Part shown: in pieces, positions 1,156-48,974 of the stretch
Numbering within the stretch: position 1 is the stretch's first letter
Layout: every line of letters begins with the position of its first letter
Assembly: GCF_055900595.2 (NCBI RefSeq)
Contig: NZ_CM148325.1
Direction: 5' to 3' (one strand)
DNA: 64,000 nt
Program-made: the position numbers and the translations under genes
The notes under the pieces: generated by a model
The model's input: only the letters and a program-made list of their open reading frames with translations
The model's database searches: none
Told to the model about the DNA's origin: nothing

Positions 1156-2007
1156 ATGTATCACGACGTCAGCTATCTGCTCTCCCGCCTGATCAACGGC
1201 CCGCTGTCCCTGCGCCAGATTTACTTTGCCAGCAGCAACGGCCCGGTGCCCGATCTTGCGTATCAGGTCGATTTTCCACGGCTGGAAATTGTGCTGGAAG
1301 GTGAGTTTGTTGATACCGGCGCTGGAGCAACGTTAGTTCCCGGCGATGTGCTGTACGTTCCCGCTGGTGGCTGGAATTTTCCACAATGGCAAGCCCCCGC
1401 CACTACCTTTAGCGTGCTGTTTGGCAAACAGCAACTCGGCTTCAGCGTCGTGCAATGGGATGGCAAACAATATCAAAATCTGGCGAAGCAACACGTCGCC
1501 CGACGCGGCCCGCGCATTGGTTCTTTTCTGCTACAAACGCTCAATGAAATGCAAATGCAGTCGCAGGAGCAGCAAACGGCCAGACTTATCGTCGCTAGCC
1601 TGCTTAGCCACTGCCGCGATTTGCTCGGCAGCCAAATCCAGACCGCCTCACGTAGCCAGGCACTATTTGAAGCTATTCGCGATTATATCGACGAACACTA
1701 TGCCACCGCGCTTACCCGCGAATCTGTCGCACAGGCGTTCTATATTTCGCCAAATTACCTCTCGCACCTGTTTCAAAAAACGGGGGCCATTGGTTTTAAC
1801 GAATACCTGAATCACACGCGACTGGAACACGCTAAGACGTTATTGAAAGGCTATGACCTGAAGGTAAAAGAAGTGGCGCACGCCTGCGGCTTTGTTGACA
1901 GCAACTACTTCTGCCGTCTGTTTCGTAAAAACACCGAACGCTCGCCGTCGGAATATCGTCGGCAGTACCACAGCCAACTGACAGAAAAACCGACTACTCC
2001 AGAATAA
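1156..2007 (+). CDS. yijO: AraC-family transcriptional regulator YijO
   Basis: 283-aa ORF with C-terminal AraC-type HTH (…YISPNYLSHLFQK…); synteny. Confidence 0.85.
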   Translation: MYHDVSYLLSRLINGPLSLRQIYFASSNGPVPDLAYQVDFPRLEIVLEGEFVDTGAGATLVPGDVLYVPAGGWNFPQWQAPATTFSVLFGKQQLGFSVVQWDGKQYQNLAKQHVARRGPRIGSFLLQTLNEMQMQSQEQQTARLIVASLLSHCRDLLGSQIQTASRSQALFEAIRDYIDEHYATALTRESVAQAFYISPNYLSHLFQKTGAIGFNEYLNHTRLEHAKTLLKGYDLKVKEVAHACGFVDSNYFCRLFRKNTERSPSEYRRQYHSQLTEKPTTPE

Positions 2008-2335
2008 GGTGGGTTTGCTGCGGCGCAGAAAGCACTTTGCGCACCGCGCTCATTACCCGCTGCGGCTCACGCAGGAATGCGTAGATGCTGCATTGCACAT
2101 AGCGGCAATGTTCAAATCGCTCGGCACCGGCAAGCTCGATATCCGTAATTAACAGCGCAACATCCGCCCGACGGATATCCTCGTCCGCTAAACGATTCTC
2201 CGTCCCCAGCGCGCCCTGAGTTTCAATGCTGACGCCCCACTTCTCTATCTGGCACAACTTTTCCAGCCGTTCCGCCGCCATATAAGTATGCGCCACGCCA
2301 CTGACACAGGCGGTTACTGCCACCAGGTATGCCAT
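1994..2335 (-). CDS. frwD: PTS fructose-like IIB component FrwD
   Basis: MAYLVAVTACVSGVAHTYMAAE… PTS IIB fold with active-site Cys; start trimmed to the internal Met to match the ~113-aa protein. Confidence 0.8.
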   Translation of the reverse strand: MAYLVAVTACVSGVAHTYMAAERLEKLCQIEKWGVSIETQGALGTENRLADEDIRRADVALLITDIELAGAERFEHCRYVQCSIYAFLREPQRVMSAVRKVLSAPQQTHLILE

Positions 2336-2336
2336 T

Positions 2337-3215
2337 TTAACCTCCCACGGTAACCTGAAATCCGGCCCGTTCTGCCATTTCGCGCATCGTTGCCACATCG
2401 GCTGACGACGGCGCTGGCACCTCTTTCATCGACCATGTTTTCCCCAGCAGACGGTATTTTGGTTCGCCGTACTGGTGAAACGGTAACAGATGGATCTGCC
2501 TGATATTCAGCGGGATCAGCACGTCCAGCGCCTGCTGCATATTCTCCCGGCTGAGTGTGAAACCAGGGATCAGCGGTAAACGCGGGGTCACGTTGACACC
2601 CTCACTCACCAGCAAACGCAAGTTCTCCAGCACGCGTGGCAGGTTCATCTTCACCACATCCCGCGCCTGAGTCACGTCCATAATTTTTAAATCGAACAAC
2701 ACTTCATCGCACAATTTCGCCAGCGGTAACAACTTGCTGGCTGGCGCGTCTCCGGCAGTTTCGATGGCGCATGACACACCCCATAGCCGCAGTCGCTGTA
2801 AAAAACGGGTCGCAAACTCCGCCTGCATTAACACTTCGCCGCCAGAAAGCGTGACGCCACCGCCGGACGCGCGAAAGAAAATGTCATCTTTCATCACTTC
2901 CCGCTCCAGCGCGTCAAGGCTGATATCGCGACCAATCCGTTCAAACGCGCCGGAGGGGCATTCATCCGCATCACGCAAACATTTTGCGCAGTGCAGGCAT
3001 TTCGCCTCTCTGCGCACCGTCTGGATTTTGCCGGAGATCGACTCCGGATTAGCACACCACGGGCAAAGATGCGGGCAGCCTTTAAAAAAGACCACCGTGC
3101 GGATGCCCTCACCGTCATTCAGTGAATAACGCTGAATGTTGAAAATGCGCGCCACGTCATCGCGGCGCGTTTCTACAACGTTACAGCTGATGTGCTGTCC
3201 GGCGGATGATGTCAT
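2337..3215 (-). CDS. pflC: Pyruvate formate-lyase 2 activating enzyme (radical SAM)
   Basis: CPHLCPWC radical-SAM cysteine motif; 292 aa from MTSSAGQ…; lies next to pflD. Confidence 0.85.
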   Translation of the reverse strand: MTSSAGQHISCNVVETRRDDVARIFNIQRYSLNDGEGIRTVVFFKGCPHLCPWCANPESISGKIQTVRREAKCLHCAKCLRDADECPSGAFERIGRDISLDALEREVMKDDIFFRASGGGVTLSGGEVLMQAEFATRFLQRLRLWGVSCAIETAGDAPASKLLPLAKLCDEVLFDLKIMDVTQARDVVKMNLPRVLENLRLLVSEGVNVTPRLPLIPGFTLSRENMQQALDVLIPLNIRQIHLLPFHQYGEPKYRLLGKTWSMKEVPAPSSADVATMREMAERAGFQVTVGG

Positions 3216-5478
3216 CCTGGATCTCCTTCGACAGTTCGACAAAGAAGGCGCTGTATCCGGCTACGCGCACCACCAGCCCGGCATAATCTTGTGGGCGCTG
3301 TTGCGCTTCCCGCAACGTGTCGGCGTTCACCACGTTAAACTGAATGTGTTGTAATTTAAGCTGGGTAAATGCCCGTAAGAAGTCGGCTAGTTTGCGTAAT
3401 CCCGCTTCACCTTCCAGGGTCGCCGGAGTGAATTTCACGTTCAGCAATGTACCGTTAGAAAGCAGCGTGTTATCGAGCTTGCTGACTGATTTCAGTACCG
3501 CCGTTGGTCCTTGTGCATCCTGGCCCAGCATGGGAGACAAACCACCGTCTGCCAGTTGTTCCCCGGCAAAACGGCCGTCTGGCGTCGCACCAACCACCGC
3601 TCCCAACGGGACATGAGCAGAAACGGTATACGATCCTGGCGTGAAGTAGCCACCGCGCGGGTTCTGGTATTTTTCCACTTCTTTGCAGTAATGACGCAGG
3701 AGTTCAGCGCTAATGTTATCCACCTCGTCGATATCGTTACCGTATTTCTCAAAGCGGTTAATTAAGCGAGCGCGGACTTTTTCGCCTTCTGGCGTTGCGA
3801 AGTTGGCTTTTAATACCGACAGCAATTCGTCAAAACTTAAACGCTGTTGCTCAAAAACCATCCCTTTCAACGCATGGAGAGAATCGCTCAGGTTGGCGAT
3901 ACCGATCCCCTGTACGCCGGAGAAGTTATAACGCGCGCCGCCATCGGTAATATCGCGGCCTTTTTCCAGACAATCGCTGATAAACGATGAGAGCAGCGGT
4001 ACAGGAGCCCAGTCACGATGGCCGATATCACAAATATTGCTGCCTTCAACCATCAGGGTGATGTAGTGGCTGATCTTGACGCGGATCTGTTCCAGCAAAC
4101 CTTCATAACTCAGCGCAGCATTACCTTCATTTTCATGCAGGCAGATTTCCATCACTTTCAGCAGGTTAAACATCGCGATGTCATGCAGACCGTAGGTTCT
4201 GCCGGGAATAGATAATTCCACGCACCCCACTACGGAATAGTCGCGCGCATCTTCCAGCGAAACGCCACGGTTGAGGAACGCTGGCACCACCACTTCATCG
4301 TTGAAGATTTGCGGAATACCCGTGCCGAGGCGGATGGTTTCTGCGGTTTTCATCAGGAACGGCGTGTCGATCAAGGCGTTAGTGCGCACGCCGAGGTTCG
4401 GTTGCGGCAATTGCACGCTTTGATAAGCGTCAAGGCAAAGGAACGAAAGCACGTTCACCGCGCTACGTCCGTTCTCGGTTAAACCGCCGAGCAGTGCGGT
4501 ATAGCCGGTCGGGAAACCTGCGAAATAACGCGCACTGCGGGTGGAGCGTAAAAGCACGATGTCATTGCATTTCACCCATAAAGATTCGAGCAGTTCTTTC
4601 AGGAACGCCGGATCTTCGCCCTGGGTTAATGATGCCTGATAGAATGGCAACATATACTGGTCGAAGCGCCCTAAAGACAGCGAGCTGGCGTTGGATTCGT
4701 ATTGCAGAATGATGTTCATGTACCAGAACAACTGGCACGCCTGCCAGAATGTCTGTGGCTTATGTTCGGCGTTATGGCGGGAGATCTCCGCCATAGTCAG
4801 CAGTTCTTCGCGACGCTGGGCATCAGTGCAGTTTGCCGCCATCGTTTCCGCCAGTTCGGCGTAACGCAAAATGTGTTTCTGCGAGGCTTCGAGCAATAAC
4901 AGCGCAGCCTGATAAAAGTGATTCTCCGGCTGTTGCTGGCAATGTTGCTGCATCTGCGCCACCAGCTCACCCAGCCCGTGATTCAGCAGGCGCGGGTAAT
5001 CAATAATGATGTGCCCCTGGCCTTTATCTGTCTGGTTGATACTGAAAATCTGCGTGCTGGTCGCGGCTTTTACTTCATCCGTCATCTGCCCGTTAATAAA
5101 ATCTTTCATCGAGCGTTTTTCCCAGTATGGGAACAGCTCTTCGCGGTAGATACGTTTATCTTCTTCACTAATGGCGAAGCGGTCCTGCGGTCGCGTCGGA
5201 AATTGATCCAGCTCTTTCAGCAGCCAGTAAGGGTCCATTTCCGGCGACATAATCCCGGCGCGCGGTTTTACGGTACGGTTACCAGCAATCAGTTCTTCAT
5301 CACGAATCGAAATTTCAACATGTTCAAGGATATACGCTGTTGCTTTCGCCCGGCGCAATATCACTGGTTCGCCTTCGGTTTGCCGATGGCTGGCGGTATA
5401 AAGCAGCGCCCGCTCCAGCGAGATTTCACGGGTATTAGCAAACAGTGCAGTTTTAAGGCGAGAGATACGATTCGTCAT
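3181..5478 (-). CDS. pflD: Formate acetyltransferase 2 (glycyl radical enzyme, PFL-like)
   Basis: 765-aa ORF with the C-terminal glycyl-radical motif (…VRVAGYSAFF…). Confidence 0.9.
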   Translation of the reverse strand: MTNRISRLKTALFANTREISLERALLYTASHRQTEGEPVILRRAKATAYILEHVEISIRDEELIAGNRTVKPRAGIMSPEMDPYWLLKELDQFPTRPQDRFAISEEDKRIYREELFPYWEKRSMKDFINGQMTDEVKAATSTQIFSINQTDKGQGHIIIDYPRLLNHGLGELVAQMQQHCQQQPENHFYQAALLLLEASQKHILRYAELAETMAANCTDAQRREELLTMAEISRHNAEHKPQTFWQACQLFWYMNIILQYESNASSLSLGRFDQYMLPFYQASLTQGEDPAFLKELLESLWVKCNDIVLLRSTRSARYFAGFPTGYTALLGGLTENGRSAVNVLSFLCLDAYQSVQLPQPNLGVRTNALIDTPFLMKTAETIRLGTGIPQIFNDEVVVPAFLNRGVSLEDARDYSVVGCVELSIPGRTYGLHDIAMFNLLKVMEICLHENEGNAALSYEGLLEQIRVKISHYITLMVEGSNICDIGHRDWAPVPLLSSFISDCLEKGRDITDGGARYNFSGVQGIGIANLSDSLHALKGMVFEQQRLSFDELLSVLKANFATPEGEKVRARLINRFEKYGNDIDEVDNISAELLRHYCKEVEKYQNPRGGYFTPGSYTVSAHVPLGAVVGATPDGRFAGEQLADGGLSPMLGQDAQGPTAVLKSVSKLDNTLLSNGTLLNVKFTPATLEGEAGLRKLADFLRAFTQLKLQHIQFNVVNADTLREAQQRPQDYAGLVVRVAGYSAFFVELSKEIQDDIIRRTAHQL

Positions 5479-5528
5479 GAGGAACTCCTGTGGGAAAGCG
5501 AACCCGCCCTTACGGGCGGGATAAGAAC

Positions 5529-5849
5529 TTAAGCGGTTTGCGCCAGGTGAGCTTCAATTTTGCTCATAATGGCATCAGCACGTTTTACCGCGTCGCTGAT
5601 GTTGACGCGCACAATGGTCTTGCCAGCAAAACGCTCTTCAAACTTGATGCCGATATCTTTGGTCAGAATCACCATATCGGCGCTCGCCACGTCTTCCGCA
5701 GTCAGTTCATTTTCCAGACCAATCGAGCCCTGGGTTTCTACTTTCACTTCCCAGCCTTTCGCTTTCGCGGCACTTTCCAGCGCCTCTGCCGCCATATAAG
5801 TATGGGCAACACCAGATGGACACGCGGTTACTGCAATAATTTTCGTCAT
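5529..5849 (-). CDS. frwB: PTS fructose-like IIB component FrwB
   Basis: MTKIIAVTACPSGVAHTYMAAE…, paralog of FrwD. Confidence 0.85.
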   Translation of the reverse strand: MTKIIAVTACPSGVAHTYMAAEALESAAKAKGWEVKVETQGSIGLENELTAEDVASADMVILTKDIGIKFEERFAGKTIVRVNISDAVKRADAIMSKIEAHLAQTA

Positions 5850-17237: not shown

Positions 17238-18797
17238 TTATTTAATATCTTTCACGCGCATACCGTTGATCTGTTCATCCGTGATGGTGTTACCCGCTTT
17301 AAAGTAATCAACCACCGCGTGATAAACGTAATAACCGCCCGTCGTATTGCGCGCTTTACCCTCGGTAAACGCGGTAAAACCATCTCCACCATCAGCAAGG
17401 AAACTCTGAGTAGCAATGTGGTAAACCGTCGCATCTTCAATCGGTTTGCCATTCAGCGTCAGCGAGATAACCCGCTGACCAACCGGCTTGCTGCTGTCGT
17501 ACTTCATTTCCAGGCCTTTCGATACCTGTAAAACGCCATTACTTAAACTTGCGCCGTGTTCCATCAAACCGCGTAATTGTTTACCCGTGAGTTCCATCGT
17601 CACCAGTTCGTTGGGGAACGGGAAGGTACTGATGACGCCACCCATCGTAATTGCACCCGCCGGGATCTCATTGCGAATCCCACCAGAGTTGGTTAACGCC
17701 AACTGGGTATTTTTACCCGCCGCTACCAGTAAAGCGTCCGCCGCCAGGTTCCCCAGGGATGCCGATTCACCATAGGCACGTTTTAATTCAACTGGCGATT
17801 GCGCCACCGTTTGCTGCACGACTTCATCCAGCTTTTTATTCCAACTATCAATCACCTGTTTTGTTTGCGCATCGGGCTTCCACTCGTCGGCGTAAAGGGT
17901 TTTAAGCTCGAAGTTTTTCACCGTAAAAGTGTGCGGTTTCTCTTTGTAGTCGAGAACCAGTTTACCCACATCAATCCCACCGCTGTCAGTGGAGAGGATG
18001 AGCGTATTGCCGACTTTAATCGGTTCCGGCGTACCCACATGTGCATGCCCGGTGATCAAAATATCCAGCCCTTTCACCTGACTTGCCGTCTGAATATCTT
18101 TATCCAGTGCGCGGCGCACATCTGTGCCCCCCATACTGGACTGGCGGGCCGGAACACCTTCGTGAATCAGCGCAACGGTCAAATCAACCTTGCCTTTGAG
18201 TTCATCGATATAACGTTGTAGCCATTTAATTTCATCACGCGCCTCAATACCCACTCGCGTTGCCGCAGATACCGTATCATTAAAGGCAAATACACCGTGC
18301 AAACCTATAACACCAATTTTCACGCCGTCTTTTTCAATAATGGTATATGGCTTATCCCAGAATGATTTACTGCTGTTCTGATAAAAAACATTACCCTGCA
18401 CAATCGGGAATTGTGCCTGACTCAACTGTAATAACGTATTGTCCCAGCCGTGATCAAATTCATGATTACCTATAGTGGCCGCATCGAACGGCATGGTATT
18501 CATAATATCGATAATCGCCTTGCCTTTAGTCAGGCTGCTGATATACGGCCCGGTAAAATAGTCACCCGCATCAAAAAACCAGGTCGCTTTGTTTTTAGCT
18601 TTTTCTTGTTTAACAAGCGTAGTGATATTTGCCCAGCCGCCAATATCCCGTTTACCCTCAGCAATCCACGGCACTTTATAGGGCTCTACATGTGCGTGGA
18701 GGTCATTGGTATAAATAATGGTGACATCTTTGGCGCAGGCCCAAAACGGCAGTGTTAATGCGATACCCGCAGCAAGCATTTTAATTTTCATAAACAA
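17238..18797 (-). CDS. Island paralog 1: secreted 5'-nucleotidase/UDP-sugar hydrolase-like metallophosphoesterase (UshA family)
   Basis: N-terminal signal peptide; metallophosphatase motifs DLHAH, DAGDYF, GNHEFD, HEG, GHAH; C-terminal 5'-nucleotidase-like domain; no K-12 counterpart at this locus. Confidence 0.8.
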
Positions 18798-18850
18798 TCC
18801 CTTCCAGTGAGATAAAGGATTGCTACATTACGTTCTGAAAGGCTTTTTTA

Positions 18851-18866
18851 TGTGAGAATACTCACA
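18851..18866. promoter_or_regulatory. Perfect CRP-binding palindrome in the divergent intergenic region between island paralog 1 and the Zn-ribbon gene
   Basis: tgtga-gaatac-tcaca equals the TGTGA-N6-TCACA CRP consensus, with an A/T-rich flank. Confidence 0.55.
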
Positions 18867-18923
18867 TCCAGAGGCAATAACTGTAGGACAAAATCGACGA
18901 CCTTATGAAATCGTTGGTGATAT

Positions 18924-20051
18924 ATGTCAAATCTGTTTGCGATTAATGTCTGTAAAACGTTCGGTTGTCGAAATTTGGGATTGGCCTCATCGGAAGATTA
19001 CAGTTGGCCAGACTATAAACTGGGTTTTCCGGCACTGCACTGCCAGGCATGCGGAAGTTACCCCCCTTTGTTTGATGAACAACAATTTCGTGACTGGTTG
19101 TCAGTTCACATGACTGCGTGTGCCATAGAAACAGGGCATTTTTGTCCATCATGCTATTGTAAAGAAAAGATTTTTTATGGCCACAACCCGCATGGAACAC
19201 AACGCGTTCAATGCCGTTCATGCAAAAAAGTCTGGACTCCGAAACAGCAGCCAGCAAGAGAAATTACGTATCCCCAGTCCATTGAAACCGTTCAACTGTT
19301 CATGCCCTTTCAAGGAGCCAGCGCACTACAAAAGCTCTATGTTTTAGTCAGTCTTGACGCCACTCGTGGCAACATCCTTCATCTCTCCACGAATTATACG
19401 CAACATCAGACAGGAGACAGTCTGCGGTACAGTTACAGAGGCAATACAGAACCAACTGAGCACCATAGCGATATTGTGCAGAGGGTAGATATGCGTGAAG
19501 CGCAATTCTTGCGCCGGAGCCAGTTCGATGAAATTCAGTATGGCAGTGCTGTGCTCAAGCGCAATGGCAAGGGAGCCATACTACGCCCGGTTATCACGGC
19601 TCACGGGCATTTCAGAATACTGAAAATCCGCTTTCCACATGTCAAAACGCATATCATTTCACACGAATGTTTTCTGAGAGGCGCAATTATTACAGCCTGG
19701 GCAGATCAGTTCCGCCAACAACAAGGCGAACTTTGGTTCGTAGAAGAAGAAATCAGCGACCGTAACGCTGATATTCCCTGGCATTTTCAGGGAACGACAT
19801 ACCATGGTTGGTGGCAAAATCAGTGGCAACGCTGGGGGCAGGGGAATAACAGCAAGATGGTCTGCCTGCTCACAGGAGTCTCCTTAGAAAGGGGCGCAAA
19901 TGTTTCTCTGGCAACCAGTCGTTGCTTTATCACATGGCTGACAGACCAACACGACTTTACCCAAAGCGCGTTATTATCCGCAGGTCGCGTAACGAAAATG
20001 CTGACCTCACTGGCGTTAAAATACAATGAATCGCTCACTCCATCTTGTTAG
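18924..20051 (+). CDS. Cys-rich Zn-ribbon protein resembling an IS1595/ISXO2-family transposase; catalytic integrity uncertain
   Basis: FCPSCYC…(12 aa)…RVQCRSCKKVW follows the CPxCG…RYxCKxCxKxF transposase Zn-ribbon pattern; a downstream stretch (THIISHECF…FVEEEISDRN) loosely resembles the end of a DDE domain. Confidence 0.55.
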   Translation: MSNLFAINVCKTFGCRNLGLASSEDYSWPDYKLGFPALHCQACGSYPPLFDEQQFRDWLSVHMTACAIETGHFCPSCYCKEKIFYGHNPHGTQRVQCRSCKKVWTPKQQPAREITYPQSIETVQLFMPFQGASALQKLYVLVSLDATRGNILHLSTNYTQHQTGDSLRYSYRGNTEPTEHHSDIVQRVDMREAQFLRRSQFDEIQYGSAVLKRNGKGAILRPVITAHGHFRILKIRFPHVKTHIISHECFLRGAIITAWADQFRQQQGELWFVEEEISDRNADIPWHFQGTTYHGWWQNQWQRWGQGNNSKMVCLLTGVSLERGANVSLATSRCFITWLTDQHDFTQSALLSAGRVTKMLTSLALKYNESLTPSC

Positions 20052-20169
20052 TCAATACACTCGACAAACGACCATAAATTAATGGGATCACTATTTCTCA
20101 TTTAATTAAATATATGAATGTATGACTGAAAAATATAATCACAGTCAATGTTTAATTAATAACATTATT

Positions 20170-20185
20170 TGTTACTAAGATCACA
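20170..20185. promoter_or_regulatory. CRP-like site (one mismatch) in the AT-rich promoter region upstream of island paralog 2
   Basis: tgtta-ctaaga-tcaca, about 95 bp upstream of the ATG at 20281. Confidence 0.3.
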
Positions 20186-20280
20186 TAATACTTTCCTGAC
20201 CTATGCTTACATAAAAATAAGACACGGAGTTCCTTTTATTTAAATAATTCAACCAATGTAACAACCCCTATCAAGGAGGG

Positions 20281-21834
20281 ATGATGAGAACTGTATTTAC
20301 GACTTTATCAGTCATATTCAGCGTGATGTTTTCTCACAGTATACTAGCTCAGGACGTTACTATTTATTATACGAATGATATTCACGCACATGTCAATCCG
20401 GCAAAAATTCCCGCTGTTGATAAGAACAGACTTGTAGGTGGTATGGCTAATATTGCAGGCATCGTTAATGAAGCGAAGAAAAAAAACAAAGATGTCTTTT
20501 TCTTTGATGCAGGCGACTATTTTACCGGTCCGTATATCAGTACCCTGACCAAAGGTGAAGCTATTATTGATATCATGAACACCATGCCCTTTGATGCGGT
20601 GTCCGTTGGTAATCACGAGTTCGATCACGGCGTGCCCAATATGGTATCTCAGTTATCAAAAGCAAAATTCCCCATTCTGCTGGGAAATATTTACTACACC
20701 GATACAAATAAACCAGTTTGGGATCATCCGTGGACTATTATCGAAAAAGATGGTTTAAAGATTGGTGTGATTGGATTGCATGGTGCATTCGCTTTCTATG
20801 ATACAGTCGCGGCAAAAGCACGTGAAGGCGTAGAAGCCAGAGACGAAATTAAATATTTAAATAAAGCACTTGCAGAATTAAAAGGTAAAGTCGACATTAC
20901 CGTTTTGCTAATTCACGAAGGTGTTCCGGCGCGTCAATCAAGCTTTGGTAGTAAAGATGTGGAGCGGCTACTACAGGCAGATATTGAGACAGCTAAAAAA
21001 GTGAATGGTGTTGATGTCTTAATTACCGGTCACGCACATGTCGGAACACCGCAACCAATAAAAGTTAATAACACATTAATTGTATCTACCGATGCATACG
21101 GCACCGACATCGGAAAACTTGTGCTTGATTACAATCCGAAAACGAAGAAAATTGATAGTTATAATGGTGAGTTAATCACCATCTTCGCAGATCAATTTAA
21201 ACCTGACACCATCGTTCAAAATACTATCGATAAATGGAGTGCAAAGCTTAACAAAATAACACAGGAAGTTGTCGGCCATTCTCCCGTAGTTTTAACACGT
21301 GAGTATGGCAGTTCTTCTTCTACCGGTAACCTTATTCTTGATGCAATGATGGAAAAAACACCAGATGCCATTGCCGGATTTCAAAATAGCGGTGGGATGC
21401 GAGCTGATTTTCCTAAAGGTGATATCACGCTGGGAGATGTTATTAGCACATTCCCCTTTAATAATGACCTCATCGAGATGGATTTGACGGGCCGCGATCT
21501 CAAATCGTTGATGACGCATGCAACCAATCTAACTAACGGTGTGTTACAGGTTTCAAAAAGCGTTGCGGTTGTCTATGACAGCAAAAAACCACTGAACCAA
21601 CGGTTAATCTCTTTCACCATTAACGGCAAACCCGTGGAAGATAATCAAACATATCGTATTGTCACGCACTCCTTTTGTGCCAGTGGTGGTGACGGTTTTG
21701 AAGCATTTTTGAATGGAAAAAATGTGAAGACGATACCGGGAACAACCTCGGCGGAATCTATCATCGATTATTTCAAAAATCATAAACCTGTCACCCCAGA
21801 CTTAACTAAACGAGTAATGGACGTCGCCAAATAA
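20281..21834 (+). CDS. Island paralog 2: secreted UshA-family 5'-nucleotidase-like metallophosphoesterase
   Basis: Signal peptide; DIHAH, DAGDYF, GNHEFD, GHAH motifs; AT-rich codon usage. Confidence 0.8.
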   Translation: MMRTVFTTLSVIFSVMFSHSILAQDVTIYYTNDIHAHVNPAKIPAVDKNRLVGGMANIAGIVNEAKKKNKDVFFFDAGDYFTGPYISTLTKGEAIIDIMNTMPFDAVSVGNHEFDHGVPNMVSQLSKAKFPILLGNIYYTDTNKPVWDHPWTIIEKDGLKIGVIGLHGAFAFYDTVAAKAREGVEARDEIKYLNKALAELKGKVDITVLLIHEGVPARQSSFGSKDVERLLQADIETAKKVNGVDVLITGHAHVGTPQPIKVNNTLIVSTDAYGTDIGKLVLDYNPKTKKIDSYNGELITIFADQFKPDTIVQNTIDKWSAKLNKITQEVVGHSPVVLTREYGSSSSTGNLILDAMMEKTPDAIAGFQNSGGMRADFPKGDITLGDVISTFPFNNDLIEMDLTGRDLKSLMTHATNLTNGVLQVSKSVAVVYDSKKPLNQRLISFTINGKPVEDNQTYRIVTHSFCASGGDGFEAFLNGKNVKTIPGTTSAESIIDYFKNHKPVTPDLTKRVMDVAK

Positions 21835-21868
21835 AATATCATTTATCAGTCTATTTATTTAACAAGGA

Positions 21869-23494
21869 ATGCGAATGAAAACAGTGCAGCGTACTTTACT
21901 TGCCGCAACATTGCTGACTATTTTTTCGGTCTCAGCCATGGCGCAGGATGTCACGATTATTTATACCAATGATCTTCACGCTCATGTGGATTCTTATAAA
22001 GTGCCGTATATCGCAGACGGAAAACGCGACATTGGCGGCTTTGCCAATATATCTACTTTAGTAAAACAAGAGAAAGCGAAAAATAAAGCCACCTTTTATT
22101 TTGATGCTGGAGACTATTTCACCGGCCCTTATATCAGCAGTCTGACAAAGGGCGAAGCAATAATTGACATTATGAATACCATGCCTTTTGACGCAGTATC
22201 AATCGGTAATCATGAGTTTGACCATGGCTGGGATAATGCCCTGCGACAATTAAGCAAAGCGAATTTTCCTGTTTTATTGGGCAATGTTTATCATAAAGAG
22301 AGTGAGAAACCCTTCTGGAACAAGCCCTACACCATCCTGGAAAAAGATGGCATCAAGATTGGTATTATTGGGCTACACGGCGTATTTGCATTTAATGATA
22401 CGGTCTCGGAGCTCTCTCTCCAGGGACTCGATAATGACAATAATAACCGCTTTGATAAATCTTCCGAGACCCTTAAGAATCAGGGGATTGAAGCACGTGA
22501 TGAAGTGAAGTATTTGCAGCATTATATCGACGAGTTACGTGATAAGGTTGACCTCACTGTGGCGCTGGTTCATGAAGGCGTTCCGGCGCGTCAGTCCAGC
22601 ATTGGCAATACAGATGTTAGACGCGCTCTTGATAAAGATATTCAAACCGCTAGCAAGGTGAAAGGATTGGATATTCTGATTACCGGGCATGCCCACGTCG
22701 GAACGCCAGAGCCAATCAAAGTCGGCAACACCTTAATCCTTTCAACTGATAGTGGCGGTATCGATATTGGTAAATTAGTCCTTGATGTCAACCCTACAGC
22801 TCGTACCCATAAAATGAAGAGCTTTGAGCTGAAAACAGTTTATGCCGATGAATGGATACCCGATCCAACGACACAAAAAGTTATCAATGGCTGGAATAAA
22901 AAACTGGCGGATATTGTACGCCAACCAGTGGGTGAATCATCGATTGCATTAACTCGCGCCTATGGTGAGTCATCGCAACTAGGCAACCTGTTTACCGATG
23001 CAATGCTTGTCGCTGCTCCGACTGCACAGATTGCATTGATAAACTCCGGCAGCTTACGTGCGGATATAAATGCAGGCACGATTACCTTTGGCGACATTAC
23101 CAGTACATTCCCCTTCAAGAATGAACTTACTGAAATGGATCTCAGCGGTAAGGATCTGCGTAACCTACTGGAACACGGGGCATCGCTTACCAATGGCATC
23201 CTGCAAATGTCAAAAGGCGCAGAAATGCGCTATACCCCGCAGAAACCAGTAGGTCAGCGCATAGTATCTTTTAAAATTAATGGTGAAGAGATCGTTGATA
23301 CGAATATTTACCATGTTGCAACAACGACTTTCCTTGCACTGGGGGGCGATGGTTTTCTGGCATTCAAAGAAGGGAAAAATGTTCAGGTCCGCGCCGGAAA
23401 TAACATGTCCGATGTCGTGATCGATTATTTGAAGAAAGGCCACAAGATTACGCCTGCACAGGTAAATGAAATGCGGGTGGACGTTAGCAAATAA
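21869..23494 (+). CDS. Island paralog 3: secreted UshA-family 5'-nucleotidase-like metallophosphoesterase with a ~24-aa Asn/Asp-rich insertion
   Basis: Signal peptide; same motif set; closest by eye to paralog 1 but with an extra ELSLQGLDNDNNNRFDKSSETLKN segment. Confidence 0.8.
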   Translation: MRMKTVQRTLLAATLLTIFSVSAMAQDVTIIYTNDLHAHVDSYKVPYIADGKRDIGGFANISTLVKQEKAKNKATFYFDAGDYFTGPYISSLTKGEAIIDIMNTMPFDAVSIGNHEFDHGWDNALRQLSKANFPVLLGNVYHKESEKPFWNKPYTILEKDGIKIGIIGLHGVFAFNDTVSELSLQGLDNDNNNRFDKSSETLKNQGIEARDEVKYLQHYIDELRDKVDLTVALVHEGVPARQSSIGNTDVRRALDKDIQTASKVKGLDILITGHAHVGTPEPIKVGNTLILSTDSGGIDIGKLVLDVNPTARTHKMKSFELKTVYADEWIPDPTTQKVINGWNKKLADIVRQPVGESSIALTRAYGESSQLGNLFTDAMLVAAPTAQIALINSGSLRADINAGTITFGDITSTFPFKNELTEMDLSGKDLRNLLEHGASLTNGILQMSKGAEMRYTPQKPVGQRIVSFKINGEEIVDTNIYHVATTTFLALGGDGFLAFKEGKNVQVRAGNNMSDVVIDYLKKGHKITPAQVNEMRVDVSK

Positions 23495-23506
23495 TAAAAA
23501 AATTAT

Positions 23507-23541
23507 AATGCCATTCATTCACTGAATGGCATTATTTTTCT
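23507..23541 (+). terminator. Rho-independent terminator or attenuator between paralog 3 and the Tsx-like gene
   Basis: aatgccattcattcactgaatggcatt hairpin followed by atttttc. Confidence 0.55.
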
Positions 23542-23572
23542 CTAAATCAACAATAAATAATGAGATATATTT

Positions 23573-24433
23573 ATGTGTATAAAAAAGCACGGGATAGCTT
23601 TATCGATTCTATTAATACCTTGCATTGGAAACGCTCAGGAAATTAAAAGTGAGGAAGGCTGGTTACATCAAAGCTTGAATGTCATTGGTCGCACAGACTC
23701 TCGCTTTGGCCCAAGGCTGACTAACGACCTCTACCCTGAATATACTGTAGCAGGAAGAAAAGACTGGTTTGATTTTTATGGTTATGTTGATCTACCAAAA
23801 TTCTTTGGCGTCGGCAGTCACTATGATGTTGGGATCTGGGATGAGGGCTCACCACTATTTACGGAAATAGAACCTCGGTTTTCCATTGACAAATTGACCG
23901 GATTAAATCTTGCGTTCGGCCCTTTTAAAGAATGGTTCATTGCAAACAACTATGTCTATGATATGGGTGACAACCAGTCATCCCGGCAAAGTACATGGTA
24001 TATGGGGCTTGGTACAGATATCGACACGGGTCTACCAATTAAGCTTTCTGCCAATATATACGCCAAGTATCAGTGGCAAAACTATGGTGCCGCTAATGAA
24101 AATGAATGGGACGGATATCGATTCAAAATAAAATATAGCATTCCTCTTACCCATTTATTCGGAGGGCGATTGGTATACAATAGTTTTACTAACTTTGATT
24201 TTGGCTCCGATCTTGCGGACAAATCACACAATAATAAACGAACCAGTAATGCTATTGCTTCAAGCCATATCCTTTCCCTGCTATATGAACACTGGAAATT
24301 TGCATTTACACTACGTTATTTTCACAACGGTGGACAATGGAATGCTGGGGAGAAAGTTAACTTCGGAGATGGTCCATTTGAATTAAAAAACACAGGATGG
24401 GGAACCTATACTACTATTGGTTATCAATTTTAA
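23573..24433 (+). CDS. Tsx-like outer-membrane nucleoside-specific channel (Tsx/OmpK family paralog)
   Basis: Signal peptide; long collinear similarity to E. coli Tsx (…KDWFDFYGY…[17 protein letters not shown]…[16 protein letters not shown]…[26 protein letters not shown]…); C-terminal aromatic residue. Confidence 0.8.
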
Positions 24434-37952: not shown

Positions 37953-37980
37953 AAAAGGGGAATTAAATTCCCCTTTTTTA
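37953..37980 (+). terminator. rraA intrinsic terminator; left edge of the rraA-zapB islet
   Basis: aaggggaattaaattcccctt hairpin followed by ttttta. Confidence 0.7.
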
Positions 37981-38194
37981 TATGCAAAATATTCATAAAG
38001 ACTATCGTTTGTTTTTATTTAATTCATTTTAAATATCAATAGTTCACATCTGACAATATAAATTAATTATCGATAAATCATTTCATAAAAATATGCAGCA
38101 TTAAAAATTAATGCTATATGGTAAATTAACTATTCTGGGAATAGGGATATGAATCATCGTTAGTAGCGAACGTATTATATAATAAGGGATTGAT

Positions 38195-38911
38195 ATGAGA
38201 TACGTTATCTTATTAATACTATGGATAATAACTACTTTTCTTAGTCATCTTCAGCACAGCAACCTACTGTCTGGAGATCCTGGCATGGTTGGCGAGTATA
38301 TCGGTTCAGTATTTCTGGGGCCGTTGTTACTTCCCGTGCTTGTGTCAGGTATTCTGTGCGCATTTATTAAAAAAAAACGTAACTTCGCCAGTTTTACTCG
38401 CGGGTGCTGTTGGGTATTGGGAATCCTGCTTTTATCCAAAGTCGGCAATACGTTTCGTATGTTTACCCCGTGGCAATATACCTTTGAGAATGCTGCGATA
38501 ACAGTGACTATCCCGAACCGACACTGGAATACGGTTTCCATTAGTACTAATAAAACCATTGATATAAGAAGTGAGGATAATAGCGTCTTCATTTCTGCTT
38601 TCCGCCTGCCCGCAGGACGTAGCGCCGATGACCCGCTGGAAGCGTTAAAGAAGAAGCAGCGAGACAATCTCAAGGATCAATACAATGAGGAAGCCTTCCA
38701 GTTTCATGATTGTAATGCCAAACATTTCACCTGTAAGTATCAGGATGTGTTGATAAATTTTGATGGTCAGCAGAAAAGAACCATCAGTGTTTATCTTGAA
38801 GACACCCCCAGGGCTGTGGGGATCATTGCATTAATGGCGCCAGATACGGCAGATAAATATCGCCAACAGGCGATGGAGATTATGCTTTCCGCTAAAAATG
38901 CAGTGAAGTAA
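38195..38911 (+). CDS. Hypothetical membrane protein (three predicted TM helices plus ~150-aa soluble C-terminal domain); strain-specific insertion
   Basis: 238-aa ORF in a strongly AT-rich segment flanked by the rraA and zapB terminators; hydrophobic stretches at about residues 3-16, 33-56 and 70-82; no recognisable motif. Confidence 0.55.
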   Translation: MRYVILLILWIITTFLSHLQHSNLLSGDPGMVGEYIGSVFLGPLLLPVLVSGILCAFIKKKRNFASFTRGCCWVLGILLLSKVGNTFRMFTPWQYTFENAAITVTIPNRHWNTVSISTNKTIDIRSEDNSVFISAFRLPAGRSADDPLEALKKKQRDNLKDQYNEEAFQFHDCNAKHFTCKYQDVLINFDGQQKRTISVYLEDTPRAVGIIALMAPDTADKYRQQAMEIMLSAKNAVK

Positions 38912-38937
38912 AAAATAAGGCGCCTTGCGGCGCCTCT
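38911..38937 (-). terminator. zapB intrinsic terminator; right edge of the rraA-zapB islet
   Basis: aggcgccttgcggcgcct hairpin with a T-run on the minus strand (aaaaat on plus). Confidence 0.6.
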
Positions 38938-38949
38938 GCGTGGAAGAGA

Positions 38950-41997
<3,048 letters not shown>

Positions 41998-44540: not shown

Positions 44541-44840
44541 TCAAGCTAACGAACGCAGTGATAACTCAAAAATAATCATCTCGGCCTGGCATGAGAAGGT
44601 GAAGGCCGCATCAAGCTCAACTTGCCCCTCCAGATCCTTAATCTTATAGGCCACGCTGGCCCCTTCATCCGCAGAGGATGCAGCGGCGGCAAGCTCTTTC
44701 AGTTTAGTCATAAAGGACTCTGCTTCTTCGCGGGTGGCAAAAAAGCGCGAAAACTTACTGGTACAGTTGTCGTTATCAATCACCGTACCGATATCAATCG
44801 CACATCCTTTAGTACTGCATTTATCTACGACATCTTTCAT
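44541..44840 (-). CDS. yiiS: DUF406/UPF0381 family protein YiiS
   Basis: 99-aa ORF; synteny next to uspD. Confidence 0.8.
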
Positions 44841-45052
44841 AGGGCACCTCTGTATATTCGCCTCTCTGTCGATTACGACTTAAGAATAATGCGCCGTTAA
44901 GGGAAGAACAAACAAGTAATGATCTTATGGATTACCATTTTTTTTGATATTGCTTAAGGTGAAGAGATCAGAAGGATTTTCCGGGCATTGTCATTTTCAA
45001 CGTGGAAATAACAAACCCGGAAAAAAAATAGCAGTAAGAGATATATTAAAGG

Positions 45053-45493
45053 TTAATTACTTGATTTATTGTCGGCTTTATACTTCACATCCTGAGTGTC
45101 TTTACCATATTTATTTTCGCCTTGTGTGCCAACAAACGCACCAAGATCGATAAGCATCATCACCAGAATCAACGTCGGGACAAAACGCCCCACCGCCCAT
45201 TGCCAGACACCAGGTAAAATCGCCCAGTTACCCGCCAGCAGCATCCACGCCACAATCATCAGAAATGCCCATGCGCCGGAACGCCCGCGATCATGCAAGC
45301 GCTTAACGGTTACTGCCGCTGTTGGCCAAAGCAAGCACACAAGGCAAAACGCCGCGGTCTGAATATCGAGTAAATTTTTACCCGCCAGTGAGAAAAGCAC
45401 CAGCATGCCTGCGAACCACAGGCCTATCCAAATCCAGAAATCACGGCGTCCAATACGCCCTTTAAATGAAAATAACCATTGCTGTATGGTCAT
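45053..45493 (-). CDS. yiiR: DUF805 inner membrane protein YiiR
   Basis: 146-aa ORF with TM helices; synteny. Confidence 0.8.
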   Translation of the reverse strand: MTIQQWLFSFKGRIGRRDFWIWIGLWFAGMLVLFSLAGKNLLDIQTAAFCLVCLLWPTAAVTVKRLHDRGRSGAWAFLMIVAWMLLAGNWAILPGVWQWAVGRFVPTLILVMMLIDLGAFVGTQGENKYGKDTQDVKYKADNKSSN

Positions 45494-45593
45494 GTAAGTT
45501 CCTTGATGGTTGTCTTTTCCGGGATTCTACCCTTTTGACAAGGGCGACAGATATCGTTTTAATCGGAGCCAGTCATAACAAAAGGTACTGTCA

Positions 45594-46193
45594 ATGAAGC
45601 CAGGGTGTACGCTGTTTTTTCTCTTATGTTCTGCATTAACCGTTACAACAGCGGCGCATGCACAAACACCAGGTACGGCAACGACCGCGCCTTATCTGCT
45701 GGCTGGAGCCCCTACTTTCGATCTCTCCATCAGCCAGTTTCGAGAAGACTTTAACAGCCAGAACCCCAGCCTGCCACTGAACGAATTTCGTGCCATCGAC
45801 AGCAGTCCCGACAAAGCCAATCTCACTCGTGCTGCAAGTAAAATTAATGAGAACTTGTATGCTTCTACAGCGCTGGAGCGCGGTACCTTAAAAATCAAAA
45901 GCATTCAAATGACCTGGCTACCTATCCAGGGGCCAGAGCAAAAAGCCGCGAAAGCGAAAGCTCAGGAATACATGGCAGCGGTGATCCGCACACTCACCCC
46001 ATTAATGACCAAAACACAAAGCCAGAAAAAACTGCAGTCGCTACTAACGGCGGGGAAAAACAAACGTTATTACACCGAGACCGAAGGTGCACTGCGCTAT
46101 GTTGTCGCGGACAACGGCGAAAAGGGACTGACCTTCGCTGTTGAACCGATTAAGCTGGCGCTATCTGAATCGCTTGAAGGGTTGAATAAATGA
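45594..46193 (+). CDS. yiiQ: DUF1454 periplasmic protein YiiQ
   Basis: 199-aa ORF with signal peptide; synteny upstream of tpiA. Confidence 0.8.
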   Translation: MKPGCTLFFLLCSALTVTTAAHAQTPGTATTAPYLLAGAPTFDLSISQFREDFNSQNPSLPLNEFRAIDSSPDKANLTRAASKINENLYASTALERGTLKIKSIQMTWLPIQGPEQKAAKAKAQEYMAAVIRTLTPLMTKTQSQKKLQSLLTAGKNKRYYTETEGALRYVVADNGEKGLTFAVEPIKLALSESLEGLNK

Positions 46194-46300
46194 CAAAAAG
46201 CAAAGCCTTTCCGCGGATGAATCTCTATACTGTTTCACAGACCTGCTGCCCTGCGGGGCGGCCATCTTCCTTTATTCGCTTATAAGCGTGGAGAATTAAA

Positions 46301-47068
46301 ATGCGACATCCTTTAGTGATGGGTAACTGGAAACTGAACGGCAGCCGCCACATGGTTCATGAGCTGGTTTCTAACCTGCGTAAAGAGCTGGCAGGCGTTG
46401 CTGGCTGTGCGGTTGCAATCGCACCACCGGAAATGTACATCGATATGGCGAAGCGTGAAGCTGAAGGCAGCCACATCATGCTGGGTGCGCAGAACGTGGA
46501 TCTGAACCTGTCCGGCGCATTCACCGGTGAAACCTCTGCTGCTATGCTGAAAGACATCGGCGCACAGTACATCATCATCGGTCACTCTGAACGTCGTACT
46601 TATCACAAAGAGTCTGACGAACTGATCGCGAAAAAATTCGCGGTGCTGAAAGAGCAGGGTCTGACTCCGGTTCTGTGCATCGGTGAAACCGAAGCTGAAA
46701 ACGAAGCGGGCAAAACTGAAGAAGTTTGCGCACGTCAGATTGACGCAGTGCTAAAAACTCAGGGTGCTGCAGCATTCGAAGGTGCGGTAATCGCTTACGA
46801 ACCAGTATGGGCAATCGGTACTGGCAAATCGGCAACTCCGGCGCAGGCACAGGCTGTTCACAAATTCATCCGTGACCACATCGCTAAAGTTGACGCTAAC
46901 ATCGCTGAACAAGTGATCATCCAGTACGGCGGCTCTGTAAACGCGTCTAACGCTGCAGAACTGTTTGCTCAGCCAGACATCGACGGCGCGCTGGTTGGCG
47001 GTGCTTCTCTGAAAGCTGACGCTTTCGCAGTGATCGTTAAAGCTGCAGAAGCGGCTAAACAGGCTTAA
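46301..47068 (+). CDS. tpiA: Triosephosphate isomerase
   Basis: [32 protein letters not shown]… 255 aa. Confidence 0.95.
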
Positions 47069-47077
47069 GTCTGACAG

Positions 47078-47105
47078 GTGCCGGATTTCATATCCGGCAC
47101 TTACT
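47078..47105 (+). terminator. tpiA intrinsic terminator
   Basis: gtgccggatttcatatccggcac hairpin followed by a T-rich tract. Confidence 0.65.
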
Positions 47106-47122
47106 TTCCTTAACTCCTCGCC

Positions 47123-47878
47123 TTAACGCAAAATCTCACACTGATGATCCTGGATTTCCTCGGCTGAAGCACGGTTCAGCGTCAGTAGATTTCGTTGTGT
47201 CGCCAGCAACACAAACGAATTATCACTCTGCCGCACCATCGCCAGCCCGTAGCTTCCCATATGTTCCCGCGCCTCAGGCACTTCTTCTGCAAGCATCATA
47301 AATGGGCTGCGTTGTACCAGTTCGCTTTCCGTTACCCGACGCGCCAGGTATTCATGCCCGTGCAAACCACCTGGCAGTGGCAACCAGCGGCTGCTGATGT
47401 TCGCCAGATTGTTATCCAGCTGTTCGCGCACATCAGGACGAATACAAGAGATATGAATATGAAAATGGTTTTGCGTACGCCCGGTGCGAGAGTTGATCGC
47501 CAAAGAAACCGCGCGATCGGGAACCGGCTGGCCGTATTTTTTGCTCATAAAATCACGCGCCTGCCAGGCCAACCAAAAGAAGTTCGGCGTTGAAGGATCG
47601 GTCAACAAAGGACTTTCAGTACCGTTAATACGATACGTTGGCATCAACAGATATTGCAGTGGGCCATTAAGATCTTTTAAAACCACGTATCCGGCATTAG
47701 GTTTGACTTCCGCACATGGCGAAGGATTTTGATTTTGCTGCTGATTGGGCAAACATTCCTCAAGGACAATCTTACGTAATGTATCCGACTCTTCACCGGT
47801 TAATTTCCAGTAACCAATACCGGCAGCCACAACGGCGATAACTATCATCACCAAAAAAAGAAGACCCGCTTTTTTCAT
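47123..47878 (-). CDS. cdh: CDP-diacylglycerol pyrophosphatase
   Basis: [26 protein letters not shown]… 251 aa; the ORF track start at 48070 is an upstream extension. Confidence 0.85.
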
Positions 47879-47984
47879 CTTTTTTTCCCTGTACCTCAAA
47901 GAGATGCAAGGGTAACGCAAAATCGTGACAAATAAAAAACCCGGTCGCGAGAAACCACCGGGTTTGATAATTATCCTGGGGAAA

Positions 47985-48974
47985 TCAGCGTTTGCTGATC
48001 TGATCGAACGTACCGCCGTTAGCAAAATGCTCTTTTTGCGCTTTCGTCCAGCCGCCGAACTCTTCATCAATGGTGAATAACTTCAATTTTGGAAACGCAT
48101 TTTCGTACTTTTTCGCTACCTCAGCGTCGCGCGGACGGTAGTAGTTTTTCGCGGCAATTTCCTGACCTTCTGGCGAGTAGAGATATTTCAGGTAGGCTTC
48201 CGCCACCTCTTTAGTACCTTTTTTCTCAACCACTTTATCGACCACCGACACGGTTGGCTCTGCGAGAATAGACTCACTCGGCGTGACGATTTCGAATTTA
48301 TCTTTCCCCAGTTCATTCGCTGCCAGTAGAGCTTCGTTTTCCCAGGCGATCAGCACATCGCCAATCCCACGCTCGACAAAAGTGTTAGTGGAGCCGCGCG
48401 CACCAGAATCCAGAACTTCGACGTTTTTATACAGTGCCCGAACAAAATCCTGCGCTTTTGCCTGATCGTTGTTGTTGTGGTGCAGCGCGTAGCCCCAGGC
48501 AGCCAGGTAGTTCCAGCGCGCGCCACCAGAGCTTTTCGGATTAGGCGTGATCACCGAAACACCCGGTTTAATCAGATCGTTCCAGTCATGGATCTGCTTC
48601 GGATTGCCCTTACGTACCAGGAAAACAATAGTGGAAGTGTACGGTGCGGAGTTATCCGGCAGACGTTTGATCCACTCTTTATCAATCCGCCCGCGTTCCG
48701 CAATTGCGTCCACGTCATAGGCCAGAGCCAGAGTGACAACATCAGCTTCAATACCATTGATTACCGACGTCGCTTGTTTGCCTGAACCACCGTGTGACTG
48801 ACGAATCACCACGTTATCGCCAGTTTGCTGTTTCCAGTGGGCGCTGAATGCCTTGTTGTACTGTTCGTACAATTCGCGCGTTGGATCATATGAAACGTTA
48901 AGAAGCTGAATATCCTTTGCCATAACGCTGGTTGCCGCCAGCAAAAATGTTAACCCTACGCCCCACTTGTTCAT
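47985..48974 (-). CDS. sbp: Periplasmic sulfate-binding protein
   Basis: [36 protein letters not shown]… 329 aa. Confidence 0.9.

Follow-up and report, generated by a model that had tools for sequence, protein, structure and literature searches.

Here we describe a gene between rraA and zapB in a 64,000-nucleotide stretch of contig NZ_CM148325.1 (NCBI RefSeq assembly GCF_055900595.2), a stretch that was analysed at its full length and is called the window below. The rraA-zapB gap measures 1013 bp in the window compared with 84 bp in Escherichia coli K-12 MG1655, in line with the original prediction of about 1 kb here and well under 100 bp in K-12, and its sole open reading frame (ORF), hereafter gene B, encodes a protein of 238 amino acids. 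The original prediction regarded this DNA as an insertion at a conserved intergenic site, of the type that carries accessory functions such as phage exclusion or immunity. Our best overall reading, to which we assign a probability of roughly 0.55, is that gene B encodes an old, rraA-linked inner-membrane protein with a periplasmic PsbP-like binding domain, and that this gene was deleted from most E. coli. The features of the locus, in window positions, are as follows.

37451-37936, + strand: rraA, context gene
37953-37977, + strand: intrinsic terminator of rraA, a perfect 12+12 palindrome, AAAAGGGGAATT-A-AATTCCCCTTTT, followed by a T-run
37981-38194, + strand: AT-rich non-coding leader of the ORF, 214 bp, 23.4% GC
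38184-38189, + strand: Shine-Dalgarno sequence AAGGGA, 5 nt ahead of the ATG
38195-38911, + strand: gene B, 238 amino acids, ATG start, sole ORF in the gap
38198-38464, + strand: three-helix transmembrane bundle, residues 2-26, 29-57 and 64-90, from hydropathy and the AlphaFold model
38465-38908, + strand: C-terminal domain, residues 91-238, PsbP/Mog1/DUF1795 fold, predicted periplasmic
38711-38734, + strand: codons of Cys173 and Cys180 (C-x6-C), from the family alignment and the model
38917-38936, - strand: GC-rich hairpin GGCGCC-TTGC-GGCGCC, terminator of zapB and also the 3' end of the ORF gene
38950-39195, - strand: zapB, context gene

Locus composition and flanking signals

The segment is AT-rich, as had been noted, with 23.4% GC in the leader and 43.2% in the ORF compared with 52% in rraA and 51.2% in the whole window, and the surrounding genes (menA, rraA, zapB and glpF) are housekeeping genes. 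Both hairpins that had been named as flanking terminators are real, but the right-hand one (38917-38936) carries a T-run on the zapB strand only. The leader, described earlier as about 215 bp of promoter-like sequence, is indeed AT-rich and conserved over 214 bp, but a consensus scan gave 3 sigma-70-like sites in total, only one of which precedes the ORF on the + strand, compared with 3.6 +/- 2.1 in shuffled sequences. Since the motif count is not above that of the shuffles, the promoter-like label draws on AT-richness and cross-species conservation, and we presume that the leader is a promoter or regulatory region, to which H-NS might conceivably bind. The sole Rfam match in the region, an sraA-like one over the rraA terminator, scored 24 bits, short of the gathering score (56), and was rejected. 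The zapB stop codon lies within another, imperfect palindrome, GCGTGGAAGAGATT-A-AACCTCTTCCATGC (38938-38966), adjacent to the main terminator hairpin.

Gene integrity, start codon and selection

The 238-amino-acid ORF is a real gene under purifying selection. Among seven Escherichia alleles, the pairwise ratio of nonsynonymous to synonymous substitution rates (dN/dS) is 0.10-0.28 for the whole gene, 0.05-0.29 for the membrane part and 0.11-0.39 for the C-terminal part, compared with at most 0.06 for rraA, and the dS values of gene B and rraA are of the same order. Together with the conserved homologues described below, these values run counter to the poor conservation that the original prediction had associated with a spurious ORF.

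The RefSeq annotation, made with the Prokaryotic Genome Annotation Pipeline, starts the gene at Met31 (38285) and reports a 'hypothetical protein' of 208 amino acids (L001 2846-3472), compared with Met1 at 38195 for the window ORF, and this internal start removes the first transmembrane helix. A matching MR(Y/F)(V/I)IL start helix is found in every full-length homologue, as well as in the RefSeq version (236 amino acids) of gene A, an upstream paralogue, in strain 20, and we therefore take the 238-amino-acid reading as the right one.

Intact alleles dominate the public sequence clusters, with 855 members in the main 238-amino-acid cluster, whereas the two largest clusters of truncated sequences have 74 and 68. 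In some strains, gene B has been disrupted independently, as follows.

E. coli TCM3e1 (L004 2049-3875): insertion of an IS5-family, ISKpn26-like element
Shigella dysenteriae (P0017): fusion with a transposase
P0012 and P0016: truncated alleles of 133-164 amino acids, some of them in O157:H7 genomes

Erosion of the gene is continuing. The gene product was not found in one O157 proteome data set, and a literature search returned no mention of the genes in publications or proteome tables. In the window, the codons of the KKKR loop contain an A9 homopolymer at 38369-38377, where other alleles have AAAAAAACA/ACG; the gene is intact here, and the tract is a potential hotspot of slipped-strand frameshifts.

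Distribution and haplotypes in E. coli

The accessory character proposed for the segment was confirmed by a survey of presence and absence at the junction, which covered 5426 complete E. coli genomes. Extra DNA between rraA and zapB was present in 679 of these (12.5%), always at a single chromosomal site per genome, and 4717 (about 87%) had a K-12-like empty junction. The commonest haplotype with extra DNA, O157:H7 included, spans about 1.5 kb and carries two tandem genes, the upstream gene A (224-236 amino acids, starting 59 nt past rraA) and the downstream gene B, which corresponds to the window ORF; the two are paralogues with 31% identity and the same architecture.

The window haplotype is without gene A and has the AT-rich leader in its place, a form found in 18 of the 5426 genomes. 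The same single-gene layout occurs in E. albertii, E. whittamii, Escherichia sp. E1V33 and one divergent E. coli, where the leader is conserved too, at a mean column identity of 91%. The block TAATAA-GGATTGATATGAGA, which holds the Shine-Dalgarno sequence, is identical across Escherichia haplotypes save for one base of AAGGGA in O157. The leader also bears a weak likeness to the leader of an enterobacterial locus with a different downstream flank (L032; score 19 compared with 12.3 +/- 1.8 in shuffles). The possibility that the leader is a decayed remnant of gene A was rejected, as the alignment score of 16 was not significant against shuffles (13.2 +/- 1.6).

Gene B and zapB of the window hardly differ from their counterparts in strain 20, which carries genes A and B (gene B dS 0.006). 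The rraA of the window differs from that of strain 20 at 11 of 486 positions, and at 11-13 of 486 from the alleles of K-12, O157 and strain 20, among which there are only 2 mutual differences. The window haplotype is a mosaic and must contain a recombination breakpoint between rraA and gene B, and recombination therefore acts at the rraA-zapB locus.

Protein family

A full HMMER profile scan of 1.84 billion cluster representatives gave 32 matches and was the sole source of the distant family members, whereas a word-indexed protein search, with either the single protein or a 23-sequence profile, returned Escherichia and Shigella orthologues only. The full-length matches have 227-241 amino acids and keep the three N-terminal hydrophobic helices and the C-terminal domain down to 18% identity. 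P107, W111 and C180 are invariant in the family and C173 nearly so, P107 and W111 forming a family-wide VPxxxW motif of the C-terminal domain. Paralogues A and B share K59, K60, R62, S66, F67, R69 and G70 of the predicted cytoplasmic loop.

None of Pfam, NCBIfam, PADLOC and PHROGs recognises this tiny family, which agrees with the earlier remark that the C-terminal domain carries no recognisable motif: the NCBIfam search of the protein gave nothing, the PADLOC defence models matched 0 families and PHROGs yielded nothing significant (best E 0.15). A sequence-profile search of the PDB was also empty. The UniRef label of the E. albertii orthologue is 'DUF1795 domain protein'.

Synteny and origin

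In every enterobacterial locus with retrievable context, the family members, with identities between about 90% and about 19%, lie immediately 3' of rraA and on the same strand. The loci are listed below, with one short metagenomic contig.

L015-L019 (E. whittamii, Escherichia spp., E. albertii and a divergent E. coli): family gene after rraA
L020 (relative with 44% identity): contig begins at the family gene, with no rraA on it; zapB is next
L021 (Atlantibacter, 39% identity): gene for an NlpA/MetQ-like lipoprotein (4796-5614) between rraA and the family member
L026 (Kluyvera, 32% identity): downstream flank is an esterase, major facilitator superfamily (MFS) and AraC gene cluster (1429-4572)
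L030 (Enterobacter, about 19% identity): family gene after rraA
L032 and L033 (enterobacterial lineage): downstream flank is pfkA-fieF-cpxP
L035 (genome with a tandem A-like and B-like pair): pair after rraA
L008 977-1423 (short metagenomic contig, 22% identity): after an rraA remnant and a gene with a DUF4225 domain

As the lipoprotein gene of Atlantibacter and the esterase-MFS-AraC cluster of Kluyvera show, the stretch between rraA and zapB varies in other genera as well.

The rraA terminator, GGGG(A)ATT...CCCC, is common to Escherichia spp., Kluyvera, Enterobacter and others and is absent in K-12. Only one hairpin is present at the K-12 junction, GGCACC-GCAA-GGTGCC with CTGCGT after it, and it resembles the zapB-side hairpin of the window, GGCGCC-TTGC-GGCGCC followed by CTGCGT. 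The difference between the two states extends from one stop codon to the other. At the locus, flanking direct repeats were short and at chance level only, with no target-site duplication seen, and there was neither a tRNA gene nor an integrase gene. A tblastn search of 50,697 phage records gave no match, and the sole match in the plasmid collection was a record of 4.9 Mb, that is, a chromosome. The hallmarks of a genomic islet (repeats, integrase or transposase, tRNA and copies elsewhere) were thus not found here.

Judged from sequence and gene order, the gene appears to be old, chromosomal and non-mobile, and to sit directly downstream of rraA throughout the Enterobacteriaceae, the window having a copy that survived. 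Deletion of the gene from stop codon to stop codon is the most likely origin of the state seen in about 87% of E. coli genomes and in K-12. We favour ancestral presence followed by deletion because of the synteny with rraA, the rraA-like dS, the shared terminator and the lack of mobile hallmarks. The simplest history would be an rraA-linked gene that underwent an early duplication, with one or both copies lost in many lineages, including the ancestor or ancestors of most E. coli.

The insertion that the original prediction had in mind, a recent horizontal islet in a K-12-like junction, is improbable on these data, and we prefer the deletion to it. An islet would accord with a GC content below that of the flanks, with the absence of the segment from 87% of E. 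coli genomes and with the mosaic window haplotype, which marks the site as one of active recombination. However, homologues are syntenic after rraA in at least five genera, their divergence broadly tracks taxonomic distance and their dS is like that of rraA, while the AT-rich leader is itself kept in E. albertii and E. whittamii. Target-site duplications, an integrase, a tRNA and phage or plasmid copies are all missing, and the K-12 junction, as the presumed uninterrupted state, is without the pan-enterobacterial rraA terminator and retains only a hairpin like that on the zapB side.

Structure, fold and topology

The protein was modelled with AlphaFold2 from a 23-sequence alignment (predicted local distance difference test score, pLDDT, 86; predicted template modelling score, pTM, 0.75). 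In the model, helices at residues 2-26, 29-57 and 64-90 precede a beta5-alpha-beta4-alpha domain, and hydropathy likewise gives the three N-terminal hydrophobic helices that had been described from the sequence. Foldseek searches against AFDB50 returned family members first (Shigella boydii, Klebsiella oxytoca and E. coli UMN026) and then many membrane-anchored proteins of other phyla labelled 'DUF1795/PsbP C-terminal domain'. The C-terminal alpha/beta domain, an antiparallel sheet with helices at its flanks, can be superposed on PsbP, Mog1 and DcrB, and the protein is an unclassified addition to the known PsbP/DUF1795 fold class, with a polytopic anchor.

The loop at residues 58-70 contains five lysine or arginine residues and that at residues 18-34 none, which points to an N-terminus inside and a C-terminus outside. 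The positive-inside rule predicts a cytoplasmic location for the KKKR...SFTRG loop (residues 59-70), and the charge distribution, the count of three transmembrane helices and the cysteine pair together predict a periplasmic C-terminal domain. In the model, one beta-hairpin (E171-175 and E178-189) places C173 and C180 on opposite strands as direct neighbours, from which we infer a putative periplasmic disulfide. The N-terminus, MRYVILLILWIITTFLSHLQHS, contains no cysteine and thus no lipobox for a lipid anchor; three transmembrane helices are predicted instead. The transmembrane bundle and its cytoplasmic loop are probably more than a mere anchor, since they are conserved as much as the domain.

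Comparison with known systems

The inner-membrane lipoprotein DcrB (DUF1795, PDB 6e8a) shares about 12% sequence identity with the window protein. DcrB, a lipoprotein by its PDB name, is presumably lipid-anchored, whereas the window protein has three transmembrane helices, no cysteine in residues 1-26 and, unlike DcrB, no Pfam DUF1795 match. Further, DcrB is core in E. coli, whereas the window gene occurs in 12.5% of E. coli genomes. The immunity proteins Tsi3 (4luq), TplEi/Tli5 (5h7y) and Tli4 (7wdk) are encoded next to effectors, within or near type VI secretion system (T6SS) clusters, whereas no locus of the window family contains an effector, and the anchor of the family is a conserved bundle of three transmembrane helices. 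The DUF1795 chaperones of the Eag type (EagT6/PA0094, 1tu1; SciW, 6xrb) are soluble cytoplasmic proteins that serve the transmembrane helices of T6SS effectors; the window protein, in contrast, is membrane-embedded, with its domain predicted outside the cytoplasm and no effector nearby. The extrinsic subunits PsbP, PNSL1 and CyanoP and the mycobacterial LpqN belong to unrelated organisms and complexes and are soluble or lipoproteins, while the window protein is polytopic and without sequence similarity to them.

Proposed function and alternatives

We propose that the three-helix bundle would tether a PsbP/Mog1/DUF1795-type alpha/beta domain of about 150 residues to the periplasmic face of the membrane, the domain being probably stabilised by the cross-strand disulfide Cys173-Cys180, and that the domain may bind a partner in the periplasm or inner membrane, on the outer side of the cytoplasmic membrane. 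The protein would then be a dispensable, fast-evolving accessory factor of the envelope, expressed from its own AT-rich and probably silenced promoter region. A binding module is proposed because the fold has no catalytic signature and its characterised relatives are docking or binding modules.

Several points weigh against this reading. 'Binding module' is a generic assignment, the PsbP-like fold being promiscuous in function (chaperones, immunity proteins, lipoproteins and photosystem subunits). Neither the protein nor the 23 family members had a Pfam match at E <= 0.001, including to DUF1795 and PsbP (PF01789), and one family member reaches Pfam PsbP at 3.4e-3. The truncated and insertion-disrupted alleles (P0012, P0016, P0017 and L004) indicate that the gene is dispensable. 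Lastly, repeated gain by homologous recombination is an alternative to deletion.

An unlikely but conceivable alternative is an orphan immunity-like protein, in which the membrane-held periplasmic domain would neutralise an interbacterial toxin that acts in the periplasm or on the membrane (T6SS Tle/Tse-type, contact-dependent inhibition or bacteriocin) from competitors, and the tandem paralogues A and B would widen the specificity. This part of the original prediction retains some plausibility, since Tsi3, TplEi and Tli4, which are T6SS immunity proteins, have the same fold; paralogues at 31% identity stand in tandem in the common haplotype and again in L035, the divergence is fast (19-44% identity compared with about 90% for rraA), and the gene is AT-rich and polymorphic for presence and absence. 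However, no effector, Rhs, CdiA, VgrG/PAAR or other toxin or T6SS gene adjoins the family in roughly 15 loci examined, the neighbours being rraA, zapB, glpF, pfkA, the NlpA-like lipoprotein gene and the esterase-MFS-AraC cluster. The gene also appears vertically inherited at one housekeeping site and in no immunity island, a dN/dS of 0.1-0.3 gives no sign of pervasive diversifying selection, and its three transmembrane helices are unlike the signal peptide or lipobox that PsbP-fold T6SS immunity proteins carry. Phage exclusion or defence, with an inner-membrane protein that blocks entry of the phage genome or senses infection at the envelope, would fit a small, AT-rich, variably present membrane protein, the weak sharing of the domain fold by a few prophage lipoproteins in BFVD and the fold relative DcrB, which is required for infection by phage C1. 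We nevertheless consider it quite improbable, given that PADLOC had 0 matches, that nothing significant came from PHROGs and nothing by tblastn from the phage records, that the BFVD fold matches are poor (TM-scores below 0.5 and a large root-mean-square deviation) and that the gene lies outside any prophage or defence island, among menA, rraA, zapB and glpF. A spurious ORF or a decaying pseudogene in AT-rich DNA is largely refuted and very improbable: the 'hypothetical protein' label with another start in RefSeq, the truncated alleles of some strains and the absence from the O157 proteome data set would suit it, but selection is purifying, length and architecture are kept down to 18% identity, the structure prediction is confident and the public cluster sequences are mostly intact.

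More speculatively, the protein might be a vertically inherited and rapidly evolving envelope guard, a PsbP-like decoy or neutraliser that intercepts membrane-targeting toxins or phage entry proteins at the periplasmic face, with A and B acting as a heteromer or as alternative specificities. We regard this as rather doubtful; if true, it would mean that a toxin-less chromosomal immunity or defence gene has been kept at one housekeeping site through the history of the Enterobacteriaceae and repeatedly lost. It is still more speculative that the strict linkage to rraA and the conserved cytoplasmic KK..SF.RG loop reflect a functional tie with RraA or with membrane-bound RNase E.

On the preferred reading of an old, rraA-linked membrane protein, the supposed islet is recast as a gene loss, K-12 being without an old enterobacterial envelope gene that is still carried by O157:H7, Shigella, E. 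albertii, Enterobacter and Kluyvera. The PsbP/DUF1795 proteins in the envelope of Gram-negative bacteria would gain a polytopic variant with a putative disulfide. Further, the alleles (present or absent, with one or two genes) constitute a natural set for probing membrane-tethered PsbP-like modules. The practical bearing of the gene is limited unless it proves to serve defence or immunity.

Other features of the window

The region 17238-24433, between metL and metF, which are adjacent in K-12, contains five ORFs and looks like another islet not found in K-12. In the annotation of a near-identical genome, one of these ORFs encodes a Tsx-like nucleoside channel, three encode bifunctional metallophosphatase/5'-nucleotidases and one encodes a hypothetical protein. 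Compared with NZ_CP098223.1, the window has 0-3 mismatches per 2 kb, except over a stretch at about 44762-48762, where the two sequences fall out of register and a pair of compensating indels must be assumed. In NZ_CP098223.1, the annotation marks cdh as frameshifted, whereas a long ORF at 47123-48070 on the - strand of the window is intact.
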